Assembly: GCF_054482595.1 (NCBI RefSeq)
Contig: NZ_CM137008.1
Reading direction: 5' to 3' (one strand)
DNA: 64,000 nt
The notes under the pieces are model-generated. The model saw nothing but the letters and a program-made list of their open reading frames with translations. It was not told where the DNA came from and did not search any database. Position numbers and translations under genes: made by a program. Positions within the stretch are counted from its first letter, which is position 1, and each line of letters starts with the position of its first letter. Positions 32,909 through 49,912 of this stretch are shown piece by piece.

Positions 32909-33860
32909 TTAGCGAACGATAATCCCTAACAAAATACCCAGTACGCCAAAGTCAGCATCACTGGAGGTGGTGTTAGCAAAACCAATATCATCCAGCACAG
33001 GCAATAAGAATACTGGCGGGAAGGTAATAGGCAAGCCTTGAGCGAAGGCACCCAAAATCGCACCACGACGTCCCCCCGTTGCATTACCGAATACCCCTGC
33101 AGTTGCACCTACGAAGAAGTGCGGCACCATACCAGGAATAATCACGATCATGTTCAGCAGATACAACGTGAACATACCGATTAAACCTGCAGCAAAGCTG
33201 CTCAGGAAACCAACCAGTATAGCGTTAGGTGCGTAAGGGAAGACGACCCGGGAATCGAGAGCTGGTCTGGCATTCGGAACCAGCTTGTCTGAAATACCTT
33301 TGAATGCCGGGACAATCTCCGCAATCACCATGCGCACACCCTGCAGAATGATGTAAACACCTGCTGCGAAGGTAATAGATTGCATGATGGAGAACATGAA
33401 CCAGTTTTTACCACCACTAAGCTCTTTCACCACATCTGCACGCGCAAACAGGCACGTCACCAGGAAAATTATGCTCATGGTAAAAGAGATAGCAACCGGC
33501 GTGTCGCGCAAGAACAGCAGACTTTTCGGCACATTCATGTCTTCAGTCGAGTGGTCTTTATTACCAAACTTGCTGCCGATGAAACCGGCCAATACATAAG
33601 ATAATGTTGAGAAGTGGCCGATGGCAACGTCATCAGAACCGGTCACTTTCTTCATGTACGGATGCGCAATAGCCGGGAAAAAGACCATTGCCACGCCAAC
33701 AACCAAAGAGCCAACGGCTATAAGCGTAATGCCGGTCATGCCTGCTGTTGCCAGAATTACCGCTACCATCATCGACATAAACAACGTGTGATGACCGGTC
33801 AGGAAGATAAATTTCCACGGTGTGAAACGGGCAATCAGAATGTTGATAACCATCAGAAAC
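32909..33860 (-). pseudogene. PTS EIIC (ascorbate-type, UlaA/SgaT/SgcC family) gene, N-terminally truncated
   Basis: About 315 aa of polytopic membrane protein with UlaA/SgaT-like C-terminal region; first about 20 codons of the track ORF are junk overlapping the sgcE fragment; opposite in orientation to the adjacent sgcE/sgcR. Confidence 0.65.
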
Positions 33861-33861
33861 G

Positions 33862-34221
33862 CTGGACTATCCCTCGGAAACGTTAGCTGAGATCCGCCAT
33901 ACCGGCGCACGAGCCGGGCTGGCATTTAATCCGGCGACCCCAATCGACGCCTGGCAATATCTGGCGTCTGAGCTGGACGGCGTGATGGTGATGACCTGTG
34001 AGCCCGATGGGCACGGACAGCGGTTTATTCCCTCTATGTGCGAGAAAATCCAAAAAGTACGCACGGCTTTTCCTCAGACCGAGTGCTGGGCCGACGGTGG
34101 AATTACGCTGGCGGCAGCACAGCAACTGGCTGCAGCCGGGGGGCAGCATATGGTGATTGGGCGCGTCTTGTTCTTTTCATCTGACTATCGCGCGACCTTA
34201 GTTCAATTCGCCACCCTGTAA
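33862..34221 (+). pseudogene. sgcE: pentulose-phosphate 3-epimerase gene, 3' fragment
   Basis: In-frame translation upstream of ORF 33982..34221 reads ...LALNPATPIDAWQYLASELDGVMVMTCEPDGHGQRFIPSMCEKIQKVRTAFPQTECWADGGITLAAAQQLAAAGG..., matching the SgcE C-terminal half; N-terminal half absent. Confidence 0.75.
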
Positions 34222-34237
34222 GAGGAGATTGTTTCTG

Positions 34238-35020
34238 ATGAGCCAACAGAGACCTGACCGTATCAAACAGATGCTGCACTACCTGTGGCAACATCGTCAC
34301 CTCTCCACACAGCAGGCCATGGAGCTTTTTGGCTATGCGGAGGCGACTGTCCGTCGTGATTTTCAGTATATTGCCAACCAGTACCCAGGCATGATCCGCG
34401 GTCACGGTTGTCTCGACTTCGACGACAGTACTGACGACAAAGAGTACGTTTTCGATGTGAAACGTACATTGCAATCTGTGGCGAAGAGAGAAATAGTCGC
34501 CCTTGCCCGAACGATGATCAAAGATGGCGACTGCTTTTTTCTCGACTCCGGCTCAACCTGCCTCGAACTGGCGAAATGCCTGGCCGATGCACGGGTGAAG
34601 GTCTCCTGCAACGACATTAAAATCGCCAATGAGCTGGGCTGTTTTCCCCATGTGGAAAGCTATATTATCGGTGGACTGATTCGCCCGGGGTATTTTTCGG
34701 TAGGAGAGAGTCTGGCGCTGGAGATGATCAATGCCTTTTCCGTAGAACGTGCGTTTATCTCCTGCGATGCGCTGTCGCTGGAGACGGGGATCACCAATGC
34801 CACCATGTTTGAGGTCCGGGTGAAAACACGGATTATTCAACGCTCGCGTGAAGTTATTCTCATGGCCGAACACTCAAAATTTGATGCCGTTGAGCCGCAT
34901 GCTGTAGCAACACTCTCATGTATTAAAACGATCATTAGTGACAGCGGGTTACCTGAGACTATTGCACAGCGTTATCAGCGAGCCGGATGTCAGTTGTTTT
35001 TACCTCATTCAATAAAGTGA
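34238..35020 (+). CDS. sgcR: DeoR family transcriptional regulator
   Basis: Recognised as SgcR starting at MSQQRPDRIKQMLHYLWQ... Confidence 0.85.
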   Translation: MSQQRPDRIKQMLHYLWQHRHLSTQQAMELFGYAEATVRRDFQYIANQYPGMIRGHGCLDFDDSTDDKEYVFDVKRTLQSVAKREIVALARTMIKDGDCFFLDSGSTCLELAKCLADARVKVSCNDIKIANELGCFPHVESYIIGGLIRPGYFSVGESLALEMINAFSVERAFISCDALSLETGITNATMFEVRVKTRIIQRSREVILMAEHSKFDAVEPHAVATLSCIKTIISDSGLPETIAQRYQRAGCQLFLPHSIK

Positions 35021-35392
35021 TAGGTAAGTTCGTTCGAGAGGGATTTCAAGCAAAAACAATCAATGGCACCCAATAGAAAATATTGGCGATGTGCTCGAAC
35101 GAATAAAGAAGCCCTATGCGCAATCCACACGCTACGATGTTGCAACAACACTCCATCTACTTTTTATTCTCATTCACTAAATGTGGCTGTTCTGGATTCA
35201 TTATTCAAAGTGTGTACAAGATCACATTTAATCACTTCATTACGGTTCAGCATGCTGAACAAAGCATATTTTCCACTATGTAATGCCGATACCATTTATT
35301 CCATGAGCAAGGAGGAGCCATTATGGTTCGCAAAGGGGGTGATGCTGCCAACTTACTGATTTAGTGTATGATGGTGTTTTTGAGGTGCTCCA

Positions 35393-40844: not shown

Positions 40845-41005
40845 TATGGGGGAACAGCGGGAGATCGCTCAAATGGTATGCTGGTTTATTTCATGTAAAA
40901 GAATAAAATATCTGTATAAAATCATGCCACTGGCAATCTGCATCAACTCTCCGGGTAAACAGGGTTAAGATGAGCATTTCCCCGGTTTAATACAGGTATA
41001 CAAAA

Positions 41006-41992
41006 GTGGATAGAGATCAAACAAACAGCAGCCTGTTCAATGATGATCCCGTACTTCATGCAACATGGCTGTACTATCAGGAAGGCAAAAGCCAGACTGA
41101 AGTTGCAGCTATCATGGGGGTGTCCCGCGTCACGGTTGTCAAATACCTGCAAACAGCCCGGGAAAATGGACTGGTTCATATCAACCTGGATGTGAATGTC
41201 TTTGGCTCTATCGACGCTGCTTTGCAAATTCGCGATAAATTCAATCTCCTGAGAGTGATCATCGTGCCGGATGGCGAACATGCCGGAAAACGTGATGATA
41301 CAAAGCTGATGCGGACTCGCCTTTCACGTGCCGGTGGCATGTATCTGAATCAGGTGATTGAGAATGGTGATGTGCTGGGGGTTGCCTGGGGAAGAACAAT
41401 CCATCAGATGAGCAAAACCATGACGCCGAAGTCATGTAAAAATGTCACCGTTATACAGATGCTCGGTTCCATGCCATCTCAGCCAGACCTGACGATCATT
41501 GAATCCTCATCGCAAATCGCCTACAAGCTTTCAGGCCGTGTCGCTTCGCTGCACGTGCCCGCCGTGGTATCAAGCGCCAGACTGGCCATGGAGTTACAGG
41601 CAGAGCCTATTATTCGATCGAATTTTGACGTTCTGACTCGCTGTACGAAAGCCTTTTTTGTCGTGGGTAACACGCTTGATGAAAATCCCCTGATTCGGGT
41701 GGGCGTGCTGAATAAGAAGGAAATGCAGACGTATCGAGATTTAGGCGCAGTAGGTGTCATTTGTGGCCGCTTCTATGACAAGGAAGGGATGCCCGTCGTG
41801 GCTGATGTTGACCAGCGTATTCTGGGAATCAGTCTGGCTCAGTTAAGGCAGATTGAACGGAAGATCTTTCTTGCTGGTGGCGAAAGAGGCTATGACGCAA
41901 CGTTGGGTGCCTTGCTGGGAGGATATGTCACTGACCTGATTGTTGATGAAGGAACGGCAGAGTTTTTGCTGGCGTGTGAATTACCACACTAA
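41006..41992 (+). CDS. yjhU: SorC/DeoR-type sugar-binding transcriptional regulator
   Basis: 328 aa, N-terminal HTH (SQTEVAAIMGVSRVTVVKYL) and SorC-like sugar-binding domain; recognised as YjhU. Confidence 0.8.
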   Translation: MDRDQTNSSLFNDDPVLHATWLYYQEGKSQTEVAAIMGVSRVTVVKYLQTARENGLVHINLDVNVFGSIDAALQIRDKFNLLRVIIVPDGEHAGKRDDTKLMRTRLSRAGGMYLNQVIENGDVLGVAWGRTIHQMSKTMTPKSCKNVTVIQMLGSMPSQPDLTIIESSSQIAYKLSGRVASLHVPAVVSSARLAMELQAEPIIRSNFDVLTRCTKAFFVVGNTLDENPLIRVGVLNKKEMQTYRDLGAVGVICGRFYDKEGMPVVADVDQRILGISLAQLRQIERKIFLAGGERGYDATLGALLGGYVTDLIVDEGTAEFLLACELPH

Positions 41993-42032
41993 AAGAATGA
42001 ACAACTGCCCCATGTGGATATGGGGCAGGATT

Positions 42033-43037
42033 TTATTGATTAGCGGCGATAATAAGAACAATACCCACAATGTATGAAATAAACATAGTCAGCAGCAGTT
42101 TATTGGTTCCGGCTGGCGCACTGGCAAATTCTCTCCAGATGAAGACTCCCCAGATCACGGCAATCATTGTGGCACCCTGTCCCAGACCGTAGGAAATGGC
42201 ATAACCCGCCTGACCAGACGCAATCAAACTGAATGCCAGACCGACACACCAAATCATACCGCCCAGCCAGCCGCAAACATGATCCCGTAAACTCCCGGAA
42301 AAATACATTTTCCTGTAGACCGGTTCTCCTGAAATAGGCTTTTTCATGACCAGCGTGTTAAGGACAAAGTTCGACAAAAACAGCCCCACTGCAAACAGAA
42401 CAAGTGCTGAGTACGGCGTCATCAGACCGCTGGCAGGCTGGCTGAAATTGTCAGACATGGAGTCCGCCAGGAAGCGGAAAAACCATCCCATGATGATACC
42501 CGCAAGAATGGCAGTGATGAGGCCTTTGTTACGGCGAGATTTATCCGCCTCCTGCGTGACACGGCCATAGGCTATCGCGGTAAAAATAATGGCGATCACA
42601 ACGCAGGCGACACCGAGGAACAGAATGAGCGGATCGCCCTGCGGATTGCCGATATAGGTGGTGATCACACCCAGAGCCAGTGCCAGCCCCACCCCCACAG
42701 GAAAAGCTACCGCCATACCGGCAAGATTAATAGAAGCCACCAGAAGAATATTGGAAATATTGAAGATAATCCCTGCCAGTATTGCCGACATCAGACTACT
42801 GCTGCTCGCCTGCTGAATATCAGGTATAAAGCTGCGACCGGCTTCGCCCATAGAACCCAGAGTGAAGGCAAATAACAAAGAACACAGCAATAATCCAATT
42901 GAATAATCCCAATAGAATAGAGGGAACTCCCATTTTTTATTACTGACAAGTTTAGTTGTATTCGCCCATGAACCCCAGCAAATCATGGTAATAAAACACA
43001 TTATTATGGCGACAGCATACGATTCCACGATAAACAT
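42033..43037 (-). CDS. DMT-superfamily sugar transporter (glucose/ribose porter-like)
   Basis: 334 aa, about 10 TM segments, resembles GlcU/RbsU-type sugar uptake proteins; family call tentative. Confidence 0.55.
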   Translation of the reverse strand: MFIVESYAVAIIMCFITMICWGSWANTTKLVSNKKWEFPLFYWDYSIGLLLCSLLFAFTLGSMGEAGRSFIPDIQQASSSSLMSAILAGIIFNISNILLVASINLAGMAVAFPVGVGLALALGVITTYIGNPQGDPLILFLGVACVVIAIIFTAIAYGRVTQEADKSRRNKGLITAILAGIIMGWFFRFLADSMSDNFSQPASGLMTPYSALVLFAVGLFLSNFVLNTLVMKKPISGEPVYRKMYFSGSLRDHVCGWLGGMIWCVGLAFSLIASGQAGYAISYGLGQGATMIAVIWGVFIWREFASAPAGTNKLLLTMFISYIVGIVLIIAANQ

Positions 43038-43140
43038 AAATAACTCCTTGTGGTAGTTACAATCAATCGTTGTGGACAGAGGGCATAACAGCCATTCCTC
43101 GAATGGCTGTTATATGTTATTAATTAAAATAAAGCTGTAA

Positions 43141-43782
43141 TTACGCTTTCAAACCATACGTTTTGAATTTTTCAAGAACGATGGTCATTTCGGCTTCAGA
43201 CAGAACGGGAACATCGTGATGTAATCCGCCACATTTGATGTATAAATCAGCCAGCGTCTCAGTTTCACCCGCCAGCCACAACGTCTTTTCCAGCGTGACG
43301 TCCATGGCCAGCATACCGTGGTGCTGCATCAGTAAGGACTTACTTTCTCTGATTCCTTGAGATACACTGTCGGCCAGTTCAGGGCTGCCAAAGGTATAAT
43401 AGGGAATACAGGGAATATGATCCGTCCCCGATACCGCCACCATATAATGAATAGCCGGAATTGAATGATTATGTATTGCCACCGCCGTGGAATTCACCGC
43501 ATGCGTATGTATGACAGCATTCAATTCTGGTCTGGCTTTATAACACGCCAGATGAAATAGCCATTCACTTGATGGTATTTTACCCGCTTCAGGTATTCCC
43601 TTATCGTCTACAAAGACAATCATGTCCGGCGTCATCTTTGAATAAGCGATCCCACTCGGTGTAATCAACATGCCACCGGTATATCTGGCACTCACATTAC
43701 CTGATGTTCCTTGATTCAGACCTGACGCATTCATTTCCCGACAAATGGAAATGATATTTTCTGCTAACTTAATCCTTTCCAT
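43141..43782 (-). CDS. class II aldolase/adducin family protein (MtnB / L-fuculose-phosphate aldolase-like)
   Basis: 213 aa with conserved His-rich metal site (HTHAVNSTAVA, LMQHHGMLAMD). Confidence 0.8.
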   Translation of the reverse strand: MERIKLAENIISICREMNASGLNQGTSGNVSARYTGGMLITPSGIAYSKMTPDMIVFVDDKGIPEAGKIPSSEWLFHLACYKARPELNAVIHTHAVNSTAVAIHNHSIPAIHYMVAVSGTDHIPCIPYYTFGSPELADSVSQGIRESKSLLMQHHGMLAMDVTLEKTLWLAGETETLADLYIKCGGLHHDVPVLSEAEMTIVLEKFKTYGLKA

Positions 43783-43812
43783 TACTGCTCCTTAACAGAA
43801 GTGATCGTCGTT

Positions 43813-44928
43813 TTAATGCAGCTCGTCCTGGAGTGCTTTACTCTTCAGGTCAGCAAACATATCCGCCAGAGCTGACTTACTGGCAGCACAGACTCCCCGT
43901 TCAGTAATGAGGCCGGTAATGTATCGGGCAGGCGTGACGTCGAAAGCGTAGTTCCCACAACGGGTTCCTTCAGGGGCGGTATTGACCCAGCTCAATTCTC
44001 CCTGAGTATTTATCCCATAGACATGGGACTGCTCTTTTCCGTCACGTTGCTCAATCGGAATGGTTTTTCCGTCCTCGATAGTCCAGTCAATAGTGGGAGA
44101 AGGTAACGCGACGTAGAAGGGAACATGGTTATCATGGGCCGCCAGCGCCTTAAGATAGGTACCAATTTTATTACAGACATCCCCTCTGGCCGTGGTTCGA
44201 TCGGTCCCCACTATACAGAGATCAACGTCACCGTGTTGCATCAGGTGGCCACCCGCATTGTCGGCAATCAGGGTGTGAGGAATACCGTGTGAACCCAGTT
44301 CAAATGCCGTGAGTCCACCCTGATTACGTGGCCGCGTTTCATCCACCCAGACGTGAACAGGGATTCCGTTTTCATGCGCTTTATAGATGGGAGAAAGCGC
44401 GGTTCCCCAGTCTACAGTCGCCAGCCAGCCTGCGTTACAATGTGTCAGGATATTGACCACACTCCCGGCCGATTTTTTCTGGGCTATTTCGCGGATGACT
44501 TCTGCACCATGTAATCCAATTTGTTCACACAACGCGACATCTTCCTCGGCAATTTCTGCCGCCAGCGCCCAGGCCACATCCTTGCGCTCTGATACACAGA
44601 GATCCTTCAGTGTGGCTATCATCCTGTCGAGAGCCCATTTGAGGTTAATTGCAGTTGGTCGGGTTTTGATAAGAAGGTCATAGTAACGCTGCAGACCTAC
44701 GTCACTGGCATTGTGGTTCATTCCCAGTGCGATACCATATGCCGCAACGACACCAATAAGCGGGGCGCCACGAACCCACATCTCCTGAATAGCCGCAGCG
44801 GCCATTTCCGCAGAGGTAAGCGCCACCACTTCAAACTTAAAAGGCAGCTTAGTCTGATCGATGATCTCTACCGCTTTTCCATCCCCGGAAACCCAGACCG
44901 TTCGGTAGTGTTTACCTTTAATATTCAT
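43813..44928 (-). CDS. S-methyl-5-thioribose-1-phosphate isomerase family (MtnA/eIF-2B-like)
   Basis: 371 aa; MtnA-like sequence pattern throughout. Confidence 0.85.
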
Positions 44929-44937
44929 AATGACCTC

Positions 44938-46197
44938 TTACTTAACCTTCGCAGACTGGATGACGGAGTCCATATTTTTAAACTGGCGGGCATTGACAAT
45001 AAGATCGCGCGCCATGGTCAATGCACGTCGTTCACATTCTGCGCGAAGCTCTGTATTTTCAATCTGTTTCAGCTCGGCAACGCCAGCAAAACCAATGATC
45101 CGGCGATTCATTTCCATGCCGGCATTCACCAGGGAATCTTCAAGCAGCGTGGCAAAAAACTGATCCTGTGCGTCCTCAAGAGCGGCCCTGTTCTGTTGAT
45201 ACATTTCTGTCGGCCACGCGTCACCCTGTGTTTTGTTGTCCCAGAGCTGGCGGAACTCCCGGGTGAAAACTGACCAGGTGTGGACAATCTGCTGAAGTAG
45301 CCATTCCTGATAGTCAGCGCGACGTTGCTCATTTGCATCCCACCCAGGGCGTGAGAAGAACGCCAGCAGGAGGTTGCCAATATAGTTGCCGATATCAAAC
45401 GCCATTGGTCCCATGAAACCGAACTCCGGATCAATCACTTTGGTATCCGTGTCGGTCACCATGATTGAGCCTGAATGAAGGTCACCATGTAACAATGCCT
45501 GCGCTTCTGTCATAAATTTGTACTTATAACGCATGGCAACCTGGAGCATCTCTACATCAGCCCAGGCCTTATGGACGGCATCGTCCAGCTCAGGAGAAGT
45601 CCAGTTATTCCGTTCCGCGTTGTAATAGGGCTCTGTGAAGATCAGATCTTCCGTAATTTTGCACAGCTCATGATTTAACGCGAACTCAGCAGTAAGCGCT
45701 TTTTTCTGTTCTGCTGACATGCCAATGTCAGACGTATTAAAGAGAGTCTGTGCTAAAAATCTGCCGATATCTTCAGCTAGCTTAGGGAATTTTTTACCGT
45801 TAATCAGTCCCTTACGCAGAATTACGTGAGGCGTCAAATACTCCATGGCAAACAGTGCCATTTCCGGGTCATAAAAATAGACCTGGGGAATCAGTGTGTG
45901 ACCCGCGTACTTGGCTTCCTGACATAAGACGTTGTACTCAAAGCCCGCACGGCTCAGAGATAAAGGCCATCCTTCGCCCCCTGCACGAAGCCAGGGCAGA
46001 GCTTGTTTTACAATGATGGTTTTATGTGTCCCCTTAACGATAAACACCATGTTCAGGTTTCCGTCCCCCACTTCTGAAACTTTCCACTCTTCTGGTAACC
46101 CTCCCGGTTCGCATGAAGGGGTCAGTCTGGACGAGAGATAACCAGGCAGCGTGTCACATGTCAGCGGCTTGTAACCTGATGGAATTGAATCCGTCAT
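44938..46197 (-). CDS. S-methyl-5-thioribose kinase family (MtnK-like)
   Basis: 419 aa; aminoglycoside-phosphotransferase-like kinase with MtnK-type motifs (HGDLHSGSIMV, DPEFGFMGP). Confidence 0.85.
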   Translation of the reverse strand: MTDSIPSGYKPLTCDTLPGYLSSRLTPSCEPGGLPEEWKVSEVGDGNLNMVFIVKGTHKTIIVKQALPWLRAGGEGWPLSLSRAGFEYNVLCQEAKYAGHTLIPQVYFYDPEMALFAMEYLTPHVILRKGLINGKKFPKLAEDIGRFLAQTLFNTSDIGMSAEQKKALTAEFALNHELCKITEDLIFTEPYYNAERNNWTSPELDDAVHKAWADVEMLQVAMRYKYKFMTEAQALLHGDLHSGSIMVTDTDTKVIDPEFGFMGPMAFDIGNYIGNLLLAFFSRPGWDANEQRRADYQEWLLQQIVHTWSVFTREFRQLWDNKTQGDAWPTEMYQQNRAALEDAQDQFFATLLEDSLVNAGMEMNRRIIGFAGVAELKQIENTELRAECERRALTMARDLIVNARQFKNMDSVIQSAKVK

Positions 46198-46711
46198 AAC
46201 AGTTCTCCTTGTCTACACAGAATGATAACTGACTTATCATATGGCAACTATACTTTATCATGTGTAAAGTAATTTGTGATGCATGTAGATTTTTTGAACT
46301 GGAGAAAATTAAAAATAATGTTGTATGGAGTCATGATCTTTACAGGAATTAGTAGGGTGCATTCCTGTTATTTATATAAAATTCATTGTATTACATAAAA
46401 ATGACGGTGCTGCGCGGGGAATTGTCTCGGGCAATCTTAGACGAAAGGAAGTATTGAAGTGACAGAATAATCTACATTTTTTATACATGTGTATTTTTCT
46501 GTTGTCTTTTGTTTTTAGCGTATGGTGTTTTTATGCCGATGTCTAATAGACAGATAGATTCGAGGGCCAACAGCCCCATTATCATGATGGAGCAACAGAG
46601 GTGAGTCTAACGTTTCCGTACTTCTTATCGATCGGCACTAACAATCCTTTGTGATAACGGTATTCCCACACAGAGAAACCCACGTACCTGAATAAAAAAA
46701 AGATTACTGGT

Positions 46712-47130
46712 GTGGAAATGGGATTAACAGATTATGCCATCAAATCGGATGGTAATGAGGTCAATAATCCTCGTCATCTCATTAACGTCAACTGTAATCT
46801 GCGACGCAAATTAGCCAGCATGATGAATAACAAACACAATCTGGCAAGAGCGTTAGGTGATGCTGATTGGCACGGCTTTATCAACAAACTGGAGTACAAG
46901 GCAGCCGAAAAAGGCGTTCATCTGGTAAAAATCGACCAGTAGTTTGTCTGTTCGAAAAGCTGCTATTGTTGTGGTTACAAAATGTCGCTTCAAAAACGGA
47001 TCTGGCGATGCCCTGAATGCGGTGTTGAACATGACCGGGATATAAATGCGGCAATCAACATAAAACTTAAAGACATACAGGAATTAAAGGCGGCGGGCCC
47101 CGTCGTCTCTGTCTATGGAGGAGCTGCGTA
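46712..47130 (+). pseudogene. IS200/IS605-family TnpB (OrfB) C-terminal fragments
   Basis: ORF 46712..46942 then a frame encoding MSLQKRIWRCPECGVEHDRDINAAINIK (TnpB zinc-finger end); no N-terminal part. Confidence 0.6.
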
Positions 47131-47395
47131 AACCCGTCGTACAGACGGTTGCAGCCTGAAAAGTGGGAAGGCCTTGCCCGATTGGGCGGGGAGTAGTCAC
47201 CCTTGGAGTCATTTTTATCCGGTGTATTAATATGCTCCTAATAGTTAATCTGGTTATAATATTTTTTTTTTGATTATGATCACGAAAATATCTCGGTTTT
47301 TATTTGCAAAACTTGAAACGTGAATCCAAAAAAGATAAATATTTGTCCGCAGTGACTTCTTTTCTGTTGAAAAGTTCAATCTAAAGGGCAAAAAA

Positions 47396-48508
47396 ATGAA
47401 AAAAATTACAGTGGCACTTTCTGTGGTTGCGGCATCTGTTCTGATGGCAATGTCTGCACAAGCGGCAGAAATCTATAACAAAGACGGTAACAAACTGGAT
47501 CTGTACGGCAAAGTTAATGCAGAGCATTACTTCTCTTCTTCAGCTAGTGATGACGGGGATAAAACTTATGCTCGTATGGGTTTCAAAGGTGAAACTCAGA
47601 TTAATGACCAGTTAACCGGTTTTGGTCAGTGGGAGTACGAATTTAAAGGTAACCGTACTGAAACTGAAGGTTCTGATAAAGATAAAACTCGTCTTGCGTT
47701 TGCAGGGCTTCGCTTTGGCGATTATGGTTCGCTCGACTATGGTCGCAACTACGGTGTAGCTTATGATGTTGGCGCTTGGACTGACGTGCTGCCGGAGTTT
47801 GGTGGAGATACCTGGACTCAGACTGATGTATTTATGACCCAGCGTGCTACTGGCGTAGCGACCTATCGTAACAATGATTTCTTCGGCTTGGTTGATGGTC
47901 TGAACTTTGCTTTGCAGTATCAAGGTAAAAATGATAGTGCTGCAAAAGTGAATAACTGGAAAGGCCGTGACGAAGTTGAATCTAATGGTGATGGCTTTGG
48001 TCTGTCAGCTACTTACGATTATGAGGGATTTGGCGTTGCTGCAACCTATGCAAAATCTGACCGTACTGATGGGCAGGTATCCTATGCTAAAGACAGCCCT
48101 CTGAATGCCTCTGGTAAAACTGCTGAAGTATGGGCTACGGGCCTGAAATATGATGCAAACAACATTTACCTGGCTGCAACTTATTCTGAAACTCAGAATA
48201 TGACAGTCTTCGGTGATGACCATATCGCAAACAAAGCGAAAAACTTTGAAGCTGTTGCTCAATACCAGTTTGATTTCGGCTTGCGTCCGTCCATCGCTTA
48301 CCTACACTCTCGCGGTGAAAATATTGGTGCGTTCGGTAACCAGGATCTAGTTGAATACATCGACGTAGGTGCGACTTATTACTTCAACAAAAATATGTCC
48401 GCTTTCGTTGACTACAAGATCAACCTGATTGATGAAAGTGAATTTACCAAAGCATCTGAGGTTGCAACCGACAACATCGTTGCTGTTGGTATGACCTACC
48501 AATTCTAA
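47396..48508 (+). CDS. outer-membrane general porin (OmpC/OmpF/PhoE family)
   Basis: 370 aa; signal peptide [39 protein letters not shown] start and C-terminal ...VGMTYQF. Confidence 0.9.
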
Positions 48509-48761: not shown

Positions 48762-49616
48762 CTAAGCGAGATTATGGTTTTCAAATTGTTCCGGGCTGAG
48801 ACCGCCACAGGCACTGTGACGACGCCAGCGATTGTAATCACACTCGATATAATTAAACACCGTTGCCCGCATTATTTCCCGGCTGCTAAAGCGTTCCCCG
48901 TGGATACATTCCACCTTCAGCGAATGAAAGAAGCTTTCCACACAGGCATTGTCATAACAGTAGCCTTTCGCACTCATACTGCCACGCAGGTTGTGTCGCT
49001 TCAGCAGCGCCTGATAATCCCCTGAACAGTATTGACCACCACGGTCCGTATGAACAATGACGCTTTCCGGGCGTCTTCTCCGCCACAACGCCATTTGCAG
49101 TGCATCACAGGCCAGTTGTGCTGTCATTCGCGGTGACATCGACCAGCCAATGACGGCGCGTGACCACAGGTCGATGACTACTGCGAGATACAACCAGCCC
49201 TCATCGGTACGCAAGTACGTGATGTCACCCGCCCACTTCTGGTTCGGGCCACTGGCGCTGAAGTCCTGCTCCAGCAGATTCTCCAATACGGGCAGACCAT
49301 GTGCACGGTAGCTGACCGGGCTGAACTTCCGGCTGGCTTTCGCCCGCAGCCCCTGACGACGCAGGCTGGCGGCAATGGTTTTAATATTGAACTCCGGCAG
49401 TTCGTCAGCAAGGCGGGGATCACCGTATCGCTGCTTTGCCTCAAAGAATGCCTTATGGACAGCGGCATCGCAGGTGAGCCGAAACTGTTGGCGCAGGCTC
49501 ATCTGGTGACGACGCCTGAGCCAGACATACCAGCCGCTGCGGGCAACCCGAAGTACACGACACATCGCTTTGATGCTGAACTCTGCCCGATGATTTTCGA
49601 TGAAGACATACTTCAT
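48762..49616 (-). CDS. IS3 family transposase OrfB (DDE integrase domain)
   Basis: 284 aa with DDE region ([10 protein letters not shown]...HTDRGGQY...[11 protein letters not shown]). Confidence 0.9.
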
Positions 49617-49912
49617 TTCAGGCGCTTCGCGAAGTATGTCGCGGCCTTTTGGAGGATGGCCAGTTCCTCAGCCTGCTCCGCCAGTTGTCGTTTAAGGCGG
49701 ACATTTTCAGCGGCCAGTTCGCTTTCGCGCTCTGACGAACTCATTTGTTGCTGCTGTTTACTGCGCCAGGCATAAAGCTGAGATTCATACAGGCTGAGTT
49801 CACGGGCTGCGGCGGCCACACCGATGCGTTCAGCGAGTTTCAGGGCTTCGTTACGAAATTCAGGCGTATGTTGTTTACGGGGTTTCTTGCTGATTGATAC
49901 TGGTTTTGTCAT
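49613..49912 (-). CDS. IS3 family transposase OrfA
   Basis: 99 aa [47 protein letters not shown]... Confidence 0.9.

Follow-up and report, generated by a model that had tools for sequence, protein, structure and literature searches.

An intact, rarer allele of the published DHAP-shunt operon of Escherichia coli, with comparative evidence on its regulator, candidate operator and permease

Introduction

Universal by-products of S-adenosylmethionine chemistry are turned into a carbon source by a dihydroxyacetone phosphate (DHAP) shunt that is enriched in extraintestinal pathogenic E. coli (ExPEC). The system has been in print since 2020, its physiology since 2024 and its regulation since 2025; the enzymology of the cluster is credited to North 2020, to the extent that this work is cited in PMC10986504 and PMC12632272. 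Here we analyse a cluster of this kind, comprising mtnK, mtnA, ald2, a permease gene and the convergent gene yjhU (mtnR), in a stretch of 64,000 nucleotides of contig NZ_CM137008.1 (assembly GCF_054482595.1), referred to below as the window.

The closest described system is the operon of E. coli ATCC 25922 and ST131 strains. The nucleosidase Pfs, conserved in all E. coli, acts with MtnK, MtnA and Ald2 to turn 5'-deoxyadenosine (5dAdo) and 5'-methylthioadenosine (MTA), or the free sugars 5-deoxyribose (5dR) and 5-methylthioribose (MTR), into DHAP, with acetaldehyde or 2-(methylthio)acetaldehyde as the second product (PMC10986504). The kcat/KM of MtnK is 10-fold higher with 5dR than with MTR. 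ATCC 25922 grows on exogenous 5dAdo, MTA or 5dR as sole carbon source via mtnK-mtnA-ald2, growth on shunt substrates is lost upon deletion, and expression of the three genes in K-12 suffices for growth on 5dR. Shunt-dependent growth is seen aerobically or with trimethylamine N-oxide, and the shunt serves carbon-source use in E. coli, with no significant role as a sulphur-salvage or detoxification route (PMC10986504). The four genes form one operon that is induced about 7.5 log2-fold by 5dR and transcribed mostly from promoter P1, which is proximal. This promoter is repressed by YjhU, now called MtnR. Expression also requires CRP, whose binding to the promoter region was seen by electrophoretic mobility shift assay on the reference allele (PMC12632272).

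Related shunts are known outside E. coli. DrdK, DrdI and DrdA of Bacillus thuringiensis form the same sequence of kinase, isomerase and class II aldolase, ending in DHAP and acetaldehyde. No GRP permease or SorC regulator is known to be linked to the Bacillus genes. The two systems differ in role: the Bacillus pathway detoxifies, and the E. coli shunt allows its substrates to be used as carbon sources (PMC10986504). In the MtnP-MtnA-Ald2 shunt of Rhodospirillum rubrum and Rhodopseudomonas palustris, an isomerase and a class II aldolase likewise lead to DHAP and 2-(methylthio)acetaldehyde, whereas the phosphorylase MtnP replaces nucleosidase and kinase, the purpose is sulphur salvage, and expression is constitutive and low (PMC10986504, PMC12632272). 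E. coli FucA follows an analogous logic, splitting a deoxy-ketose-1-phosphate into DHAP and an aldehyde. Ald2 differs from it in being encoded in the mtnK/mtnA operon and in its published substrates, 5-deoxy- and 5-methylthio-ribulose-1-phosphate.

Results and Discussion

Gene content and identity of the operon

An open reading frame (ORF) scan of the minus strand between 42033 and 46197 gave four intact, co-directional ORFs in the order mtnK, mtnA, ald2, permease. Their limits are exactly those of the first-pass annotation, made from the letters alone, which had named a transporter, an aldolase, an MtnA-like isomerase and an MtnK-like kinase; profile scores agree with these names. The genes of the locus, with the evidence for each, are as follows.

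44938-46197, minus strand: mtnK, S-methyl-5-thioribose kinase, 419 residues (TIGR01767, PDB matches, motifs)
43813-44928, minus strand: mtnA, isomerase of 5-methylthioribose-1-phosphate and 5-deoxyribose-1-phosphate, 371 residues (TIGR00512, PDB matches, motifs)
43141-43782, minus strand: ald2, class II aldolase and FucA paralogue, 213 residues (PRK08087, FucA residues)
42033-43037, minus strand: predicted GRP/DMT-family permease, last gene of the operon, 334 residues (weak profile matches, RefSeq name)
41006-41992, plus strand: yjhU = mtnR, convergent repressor gene assigned to the SorC family, 328 residues (PF04198)

We conclude with high confidence that this is the DHAP-shunt operon mtnK-mtnA-ald2-permease with the convergent repressor gene mtnR. 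The region is the already published E. coli operon in an intact but rarer allele, and it is no new system. The first-pass suggestion that such a cluster was probably known from extraintestinal E. coli proved correct, and the kinase-isomerase-aldolase route from MTR and 5dR to DHAP that it described agrees with both published accounts (PMC10986504, PMC12632272).

All three enzymes were placed by profile and structure matches. MtnK scored 521 bits against the NCBIfam model TIGR01767 (cut-off 275) over profile positions 1-400 of 401; its best PDB matches were the MTR kinases 2pyw and 2olc, and the motifs HGDLH (residue 237) and DPEF (residue 256) are present. MtnA scored 411 bits against TIGR00512 (cut-off 279), matched the MtnA structures 1t9k and 2yvk best, and carries THCN and GTDR motifs. 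Ald2 scored 361 bits against the FucA-subfamily model PRK08087 (cut-off 264) while falling under the fucA equivalog cut-off (315 against 400 bits), and it reached 66 bits against the MtnB model TIGR03328, far under the cut-off of 137. Its best PDB match, at 270 bits, was E. coli FucA (1FUA), to which it is 58% identical over 212 ungapped residues; the distant B. thuringiensis aldolase (6btd/6btg) gave 118 bits. Ald2 keeps E73, H92, H94, H155, Y113, F131, F206 and Y209 of FucA, with T43 replaced by S; this set takes in the zinc ligands, Glu73 as catalytic residue and the residues of the hydrophobic wall. These matches support Ald2 as a class II aldolase and not an MtnB dehydratase.

The window is E. 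coli DNA, and its positions 41000-46500 are 100% identical to the O157:H16 strain Santai and to several other genomes. RefSeq annotates the locus in Santai as mtnK, mtnA, L-fuculose-phosphate aldolase, GRP family sugar transporter and yjhU. Of 5426 complete E. coli genomes, 1078 carry the operon essentially in full (at least 80% of 42033-46197). The window allele, at 99% identity or more, occurs in only 13-17 of the 5426; the other carriers are about 97% identical.

For all allele comparisons, the ST131 strain PA45B served as proxy for ATCC 25922; its upstream ORF, WP_000788354, is the ORF that PMC12632272 names for ATCC 25922. The window has the same five genes in the same order and orientation, at about 3% nucleotide divergence, and the proteins are 97-99.4% identical (permease 99.4%, Ald2 98.1%, MtnA 97.0%, MtnK 98.6%, YjhU 99.4%). 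Codon differences between the two alleles comprise 87 synonymous and 25 non-synonymous changes, an excess that indicates purifying selection on the window-allele coding sequences. Together with the catalytic motifs, the same excess indicates that the genes are real and intact.

Promoter region and expression of the rarer allele

A sigma-70 scan of 41900-46700 found no minus-strand promoter upstream of mtnK at the scan thresholds, and promoter elements were therefore placed from PMC12632272 and from conservation.

46198-46657, minus strand: 5' region shared with the ATCC 25922/ST131-type allele and holding the published P1 and P2 (alignment with PA45B)
46272-46293, minus strand: CRP-like site AAAATCTACATGCATCACAAAT (reading of the sequence and conservation)

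Similarity to PA45B extends from the mtnK start to about 46657 (~460 bp), includes the CRP-like site and several substitutions in the P1 core, and breaks at a TnpB pseudogene remnant. Beyond this point the loci are unrelated, PA45B having a 799-bp spacer and WP_000788354. At least ~250 bp of 5' region has been reported as common to all operon-bearing strains (PMC12632272).

Nine promoter sequences were compared, four of them retrieved by a pattern taken from the aligned columns, and only the first five lineages are independent. Across the nine, the right half-site of the CRP-like site, TCACA (46275-46279), is near-invariant, with TCAnA in all nine and TCATA in L014. Measured from 46247, the site is 35.5 nt upstream, in agreement with the CRP site described as 'centred at -35.5' (PMC12632272). 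A transcription start site near 46247, 50 nt upstream of mtnK, would place GATAAT/GATAAA at -12 to -7. The published start site, '72 bp upstream of mtnK', corresponds to 46269, and no plausible -10 hexamer precedes that position. The same source gives the position of P2 inconsistently, its text having 188 bp and one of its legends 218 bp (PMC12632272).

Several observations weigh against assigning the locus to the published operon. The window allele differs from the characterised allele by 23 residues in the four operon proteins and by 2 in YjhU. Its -10 hexamer reads GATAAA, against GATAAT in the reference, and in the published semi-palindrome the right half reads ACATG, against ATTTG in the reference. 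The source strain is a duck commensal, whereas the pathway is reported mainly in ExPEC. K-12 carrying mtnK-mtnA-ald2 alone grows on 5 mM 5dR, so that the permease is dispensable there (PMC10986504).

The promoter differences raise the alternative that the enzymes are intact while the Santai-type allele is poorly expressed or differently regulated, both its -10 hexamer (GATAAT to GATAAA) and the published candidate operator (CAAAT..ATTTG to CAAAT..ACATG) being altered; the rarity of the allele among complete genomes points the same way. However, Klebsiella, Providencia and two metagenomic modules are variable at the substituted positions too, the window keeps all invariant positions (TCAnA, TTTnCAnnTGnnAAnnTAT and CnnnTGnnAnG), and the coding sequences bear the mark of purifying selection. 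We regard altered expression as improbable, and infer that the window allele works like the 97-99% identical ATCC 25922-type allele.

Pathway and physiological role

In the proposed pathway, the housekeeping nucleosidase Pfs, encoded outside the window, would convert 5dAdo and MTA to 5dR and MTR. MtnK would phosphorylate C1 of these sugars, whether exogenous or derived from Pfs, MtnA would isomerise the 1-phosphates to ribulose-1-phosphates, and Ald2 would split these into DHAP and an aldehyde, either acetaldehyde or 2-(methylthio)acetaldehyde. The predicted outcome in E. coli is the use of exogenous 5'-deoxynucleosides and 5-deoxypentoses as carbon and energy sources, with the permease most likely bringing in the free 5-deoxypentoses. 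Transcription from upstream of mtnK would require cAMP-CRP, and MtnR would keep it repressed as long as no pathway substrate is present; the signal sensed by MtnR is probably a phosphorylated intermediate. The first-pass annotation had taken the transporter to suggest scavenging of these sugars from the environment. Scavenging itself stands, given that ATCC 25922 uses exogenous 5dAdo, MTA and 5dR (PMC10986504), while the part played by the transporter stays putative.

The same biochemistry could instead dispose of endogenous 5dR and 5dAdo, and the kinase-isomerase-aldolase logic shared with DrdK/DrdI/DrdA, together with the 118-bit match of Ald2 to the B. thuringiensis aldolase 6btd, is consistent with such a detoxification role. 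However, deletion of mtnK-mtnA-ald2 in ATCC 25922 leaves sensitivity to MTA, 5dAdo and 5dR unchanged, and only Pfs matters (PMC10986504). The operon is catabolite-repressed and induced by 5dR, as a catabolic operon would be (PMC12632272), and its co-transcribed uptake-type permease suits import. Detoxification is thus very unlikely to be the role of the operon, and we retain nutrient scavenging.

RefSeq annotation of the identical Santai record shows no genes for an enolase-phosphatase, a dioxygenase or MtnB across the 64-kb window, in line with the first-pass statement that the first two were missing nearby, and within the window no universal-pathway genes of the mtnB/C/D/W/X type are linked to the cluster. 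That the cluster encodes the first steps of canonical methionine salvage, with the aldolase-fold protein acting as an MtnB dehydratase and later steps encoded elsewhere, was rejected on profile scores and on the lack of mtnC and mtnD in the window annotation, and we give it almost no credence: MtnK and MtnA do belong to universal-pathway families in NCBIfam and the aldolase-fold protein has a weak MtnB match, but that match (66 bits, cut-off 137) compares with 361 bits (cut-off 264) for the FucA subfamily, 58% identity to FucA and all aldolase catalytic residues, mtnW is likewise unannotated in the window, and ATCC 25922 accumulates the sulphur of MTA as 2-methylthioethanol with no recycling to methionine (PMC10986504).

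The regulator MtnR and a candidate operator

MtnR matched the Pfam family PF04198 (Sugar-bind) with an E value of 1e-78 over residues 64-323, and showed helix-turn-helix (HTH) type matches at residues 21-57. In NCBIfam it scored 209 bits against the B. subtilis-type DeoR model and also matched the LsrR model, both under the equivalog cut-offs. The Pfam scan of MtnR gave neither PF08220 (HTH_DeoR) nor PF00455 (DeoRC), which we take to be the domains of the E. coli DeoR/GlpR family, presumably including E. coli DeoR, GlpR and FucR. The SorC family includes DeoR of B. subtilis, CggR and E. coli LsrR; with these sugar-phosphate repressors MtnR shares PF04198 and an N-terminal HTH, and it likewise represses a catabolic operon. 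MtnR has been likened to E. coli DeoR, GlpR and FucR (PMC12632272). On its domain content, however, it is a member of the SorC family and not of the E. coli DeoR/GlpR family.

The candidate operator put forward in print, CAAAT..ATTTG, is lacking in the window allele, in Klebsiella oxytoca, Providencia rettgeri and both metagenomic modules, and in one Citrobacter amalonaticus sequence. It is thus not conserved, although MtnR is about 90% conserved in the lineages compared. What is invariant in the promoter alignment is TTTnCAnnTGnnAAnnTATnnT followed by CnnnTGnnAnG, together equivalent to a pair of direct repeats.

46255-46264, minus strand: direct repeat copy CACATGATAA, repeat B (conservation)
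46234-46243, minus strand: direct repeat copy CATATGATAA, repeat C (conservation)

The repeats are two copies of CAyWTGnnAA with a spacing of 21 nt, lying over the -10 hexamer and over roughly +5 to +14. In both copies, the C, A, T, G, A and A positions show no variation across seven lineages. The pair occurs once in the 64-kb window, where 0.05 occurrences are expected, a circular count in that the pattern itself was built on this locus. This direct-repeat pair may be the MtnR operator in place of CAAAT..ATTTG, and the comparative data thereby offer operator candidates that can be tested.

Since efeU is upregulated in an mtnR deletion strain, it has been described as MtnR-repressed (PMC12632272). 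The candidate operator motif had no match upstream of efeU in K-12, which lends no support to direct control there, and none upstream of yjhU. Absence of the motif at these two genes is no evidence against an operator at mtnK.

The permease

The fourth gene of the operon gave weaker matches. Against the NCBIfam RhaT model the permease scored 30 bits over the full model length, and in Pfam it showed weak matches to Ureide_permease (40 and 36 bits), Sugar_transport (28 bits) and RhaT, all of which we take to be families of the DMT type. A crude hydropathy scan gave 8-10 segments over the 334 residues, where a GRP-family protein would have about 10 hydrophobic segments over about 330, and the RefSeq name is 'GRP family sugar transporter'. 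Membership of the DMT superfamily is supported by these weak profile matches. The published account calls the permease 'putative' (PMC12632272).

Gene neighbourhoods bear on its substrate. The permease gene is linked to mtnK-mtnA-ald2 in five other lineages, where the protein is 85-88% identical. Homologues of 59-72% identity adjoin PfkB ribokinase-like kinases in Aeromonas, a KSB1 genome, a Salmonella contig and two assemblies. At L007, L012 and L016 (the Salmonella contig) the module consists of a DeoR-HTH/PfkB fusion, the permease and a PfkB kinase, and at L009 (KSB1) and L013 of permease and PfkB kinase only. An inosine-uridine nucleoside hydrolase gene lies about 0.9 kb beyond the PfkB kinase in the Salmonella contig, and ADP-ribosylglycohydrolase genes lie upstream of the permease-kinase unit in KSB1. 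The permease-PfkB pair looks like an uncharacterised ribose-like uptake and kinase unit. This neighbourhood suits an importer of ribose-type pentoses and supports, short of proof, uptake of 5dR and MTR. The permease may be a dedicated high-affinity 5dR/MTR importer from a ribose-type GRP lineage.

The five-gene module in other genera and yjhU in K-12

The five genes, including mtnR, are found side by side, ordered and oriented as in E. coli and set between unrelated flanks, in P. rettgeri, K. oxytoca and two metagenomic assemblies. Conservation among these four modules falls from MtnR (88-92% identity) through the permease (85-88%) to the enzymes (74-85%). In two C. amalonaticus genomes the promoter core alone was found, at loci of about 1 kb. 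In Citrobacter sp. On2M (L021, 2572-11612) genes the size of yjhF and yjhG come after the five-gene module, as they do in E. coli, and the module is about 93% identical to the E. coli module at the nucleotide level. Because this is well above the typical inter-genus level, it suggests that Citrobacter and Escherichia recently exchanged a block larger than the five genes.

The first-pass annotation had stated that K-12 lacks the shunt, and in MG1655 all that is left of the operon is indeed the final 58 nt of the permease gene. In that genome (L017, 11241-11338) the yjhU stop codon is followed by the terminator hairpin, by the permease remnant, equivalent to window positions 42033-42090, and then by IS1F. 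Since IS1F cuts the permease gene after 58 nt, K-12 yjhU is, as judged from its neighbourhood, an orphan. Other genomes have the operon truncated at operon position 1417 or 2531. In all, yjhU was found in 1601 of the 5426 complete genomes, with at least a remnant of the operon in 1596. Because yjhU is almost never seen without an operon trace, its persistence suggests a leftover of deletion. The published alternative is that yjhU is kept to regulate other genes (PMC12632272); the deletion-leftover view is the simpler explanation for operon-less strains. MtnR may be integral to a horizontally exchanged five-gene module, with yjhU in K-12 and about 520 other complete genomes an orphan that remained after IS-mediated truncation of the operon.

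Each of these proposals concerns a different part of the system. Taken jointly, that the direct repeats are the operator, that mtnR belongs to the module with yjhU as its orphan, and that the permease is a dedicated 5dR/MTR importer, they form a tentative reading, with the balance somewhat against all three holding together.

A plasmid search returned no convincing plasmid carriage of the operon. The full-length matches were to records of 0.8-4.9 Mb that appear to be chromosomes labelled wrongly, and the partial matches lay at record edges. Two E. coli records labelled as plasmids, CP088711.1 and NZ_CP126938.1 (156-166 kb), begin or end inside the operon, with partial matches at position 1; these edges could be an assembly artefact or real plasmid capture.

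RNA structures and flanking regions

Two predicted hairpins lie at the ends of the permease gene.

42005-42028, both strands: G+C-rich hairpin that separates mtnR from the convergent permease gene, 9-10 pairs, 6 of them G-C
43085-43113, no strand assigned: hairpin with a 13-bp stem in the ald2-permease spacer, 43038-43140 (structure prediction)

The first hairpin is retained in K-12 and is probably a bidirectional terminator for mtnR and the permease gene. In the spacer, after the 13-bp-stem hairpin, a strongly conserved TAACTnCC...GGAGTTA stands just before the permease start and is predicted to pair into a further stem that covers the Shine-Dalgarno sequence. The predicted structure is partly conserved across genera, with only one compensatory pair. 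The further stem may tune translation of the permease.

Neighbours common to the window and the ATCC 25922/ST131-type locus are yjhU, yjhF-I and sgc. The sgc cluster by yjhI is degraded in the window (33113-35224), with fragments of PTS IIC and epimerase genes, an intact sgcR, and flanking IS66 remnants. In the published account, the cluster adjoins yjhU where the leuX island ends (PMC12632272). No leuX was found in the 64-kb window, where the nearest pair of tRNA and integrase genes is at tRNA-Phe. The features on the mtnK side are the following.

46641-47159, plus strand: TnpB/InsQ pseudogene remnant, adjoining the shared promoter region
47396-48508, plus strand: intact OmpC-like porin gene (PRK10554, 532 bits)
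48762-49912, minus strand: ISEc16, IS3-family, in the upstream flank
58148-59413, minus strand: tyrosine integrase gene beside tRNA-Phe, about 13 kb upstream of mtnK
59626-59701, minus strand: tRNA-Phe(GAA), complete and canonical, missing from the RefSeq feature table returned

The TnpB remnant, the porin gene and ISEc16 replace the 799-bp spacer and the McrBC/restriction-system genes of ST131. Beyond tRNA-Phe lie more island genes (parDE, cbtA/cbeA, radC and antirestriction genes), and the region looks like a composite of islands.

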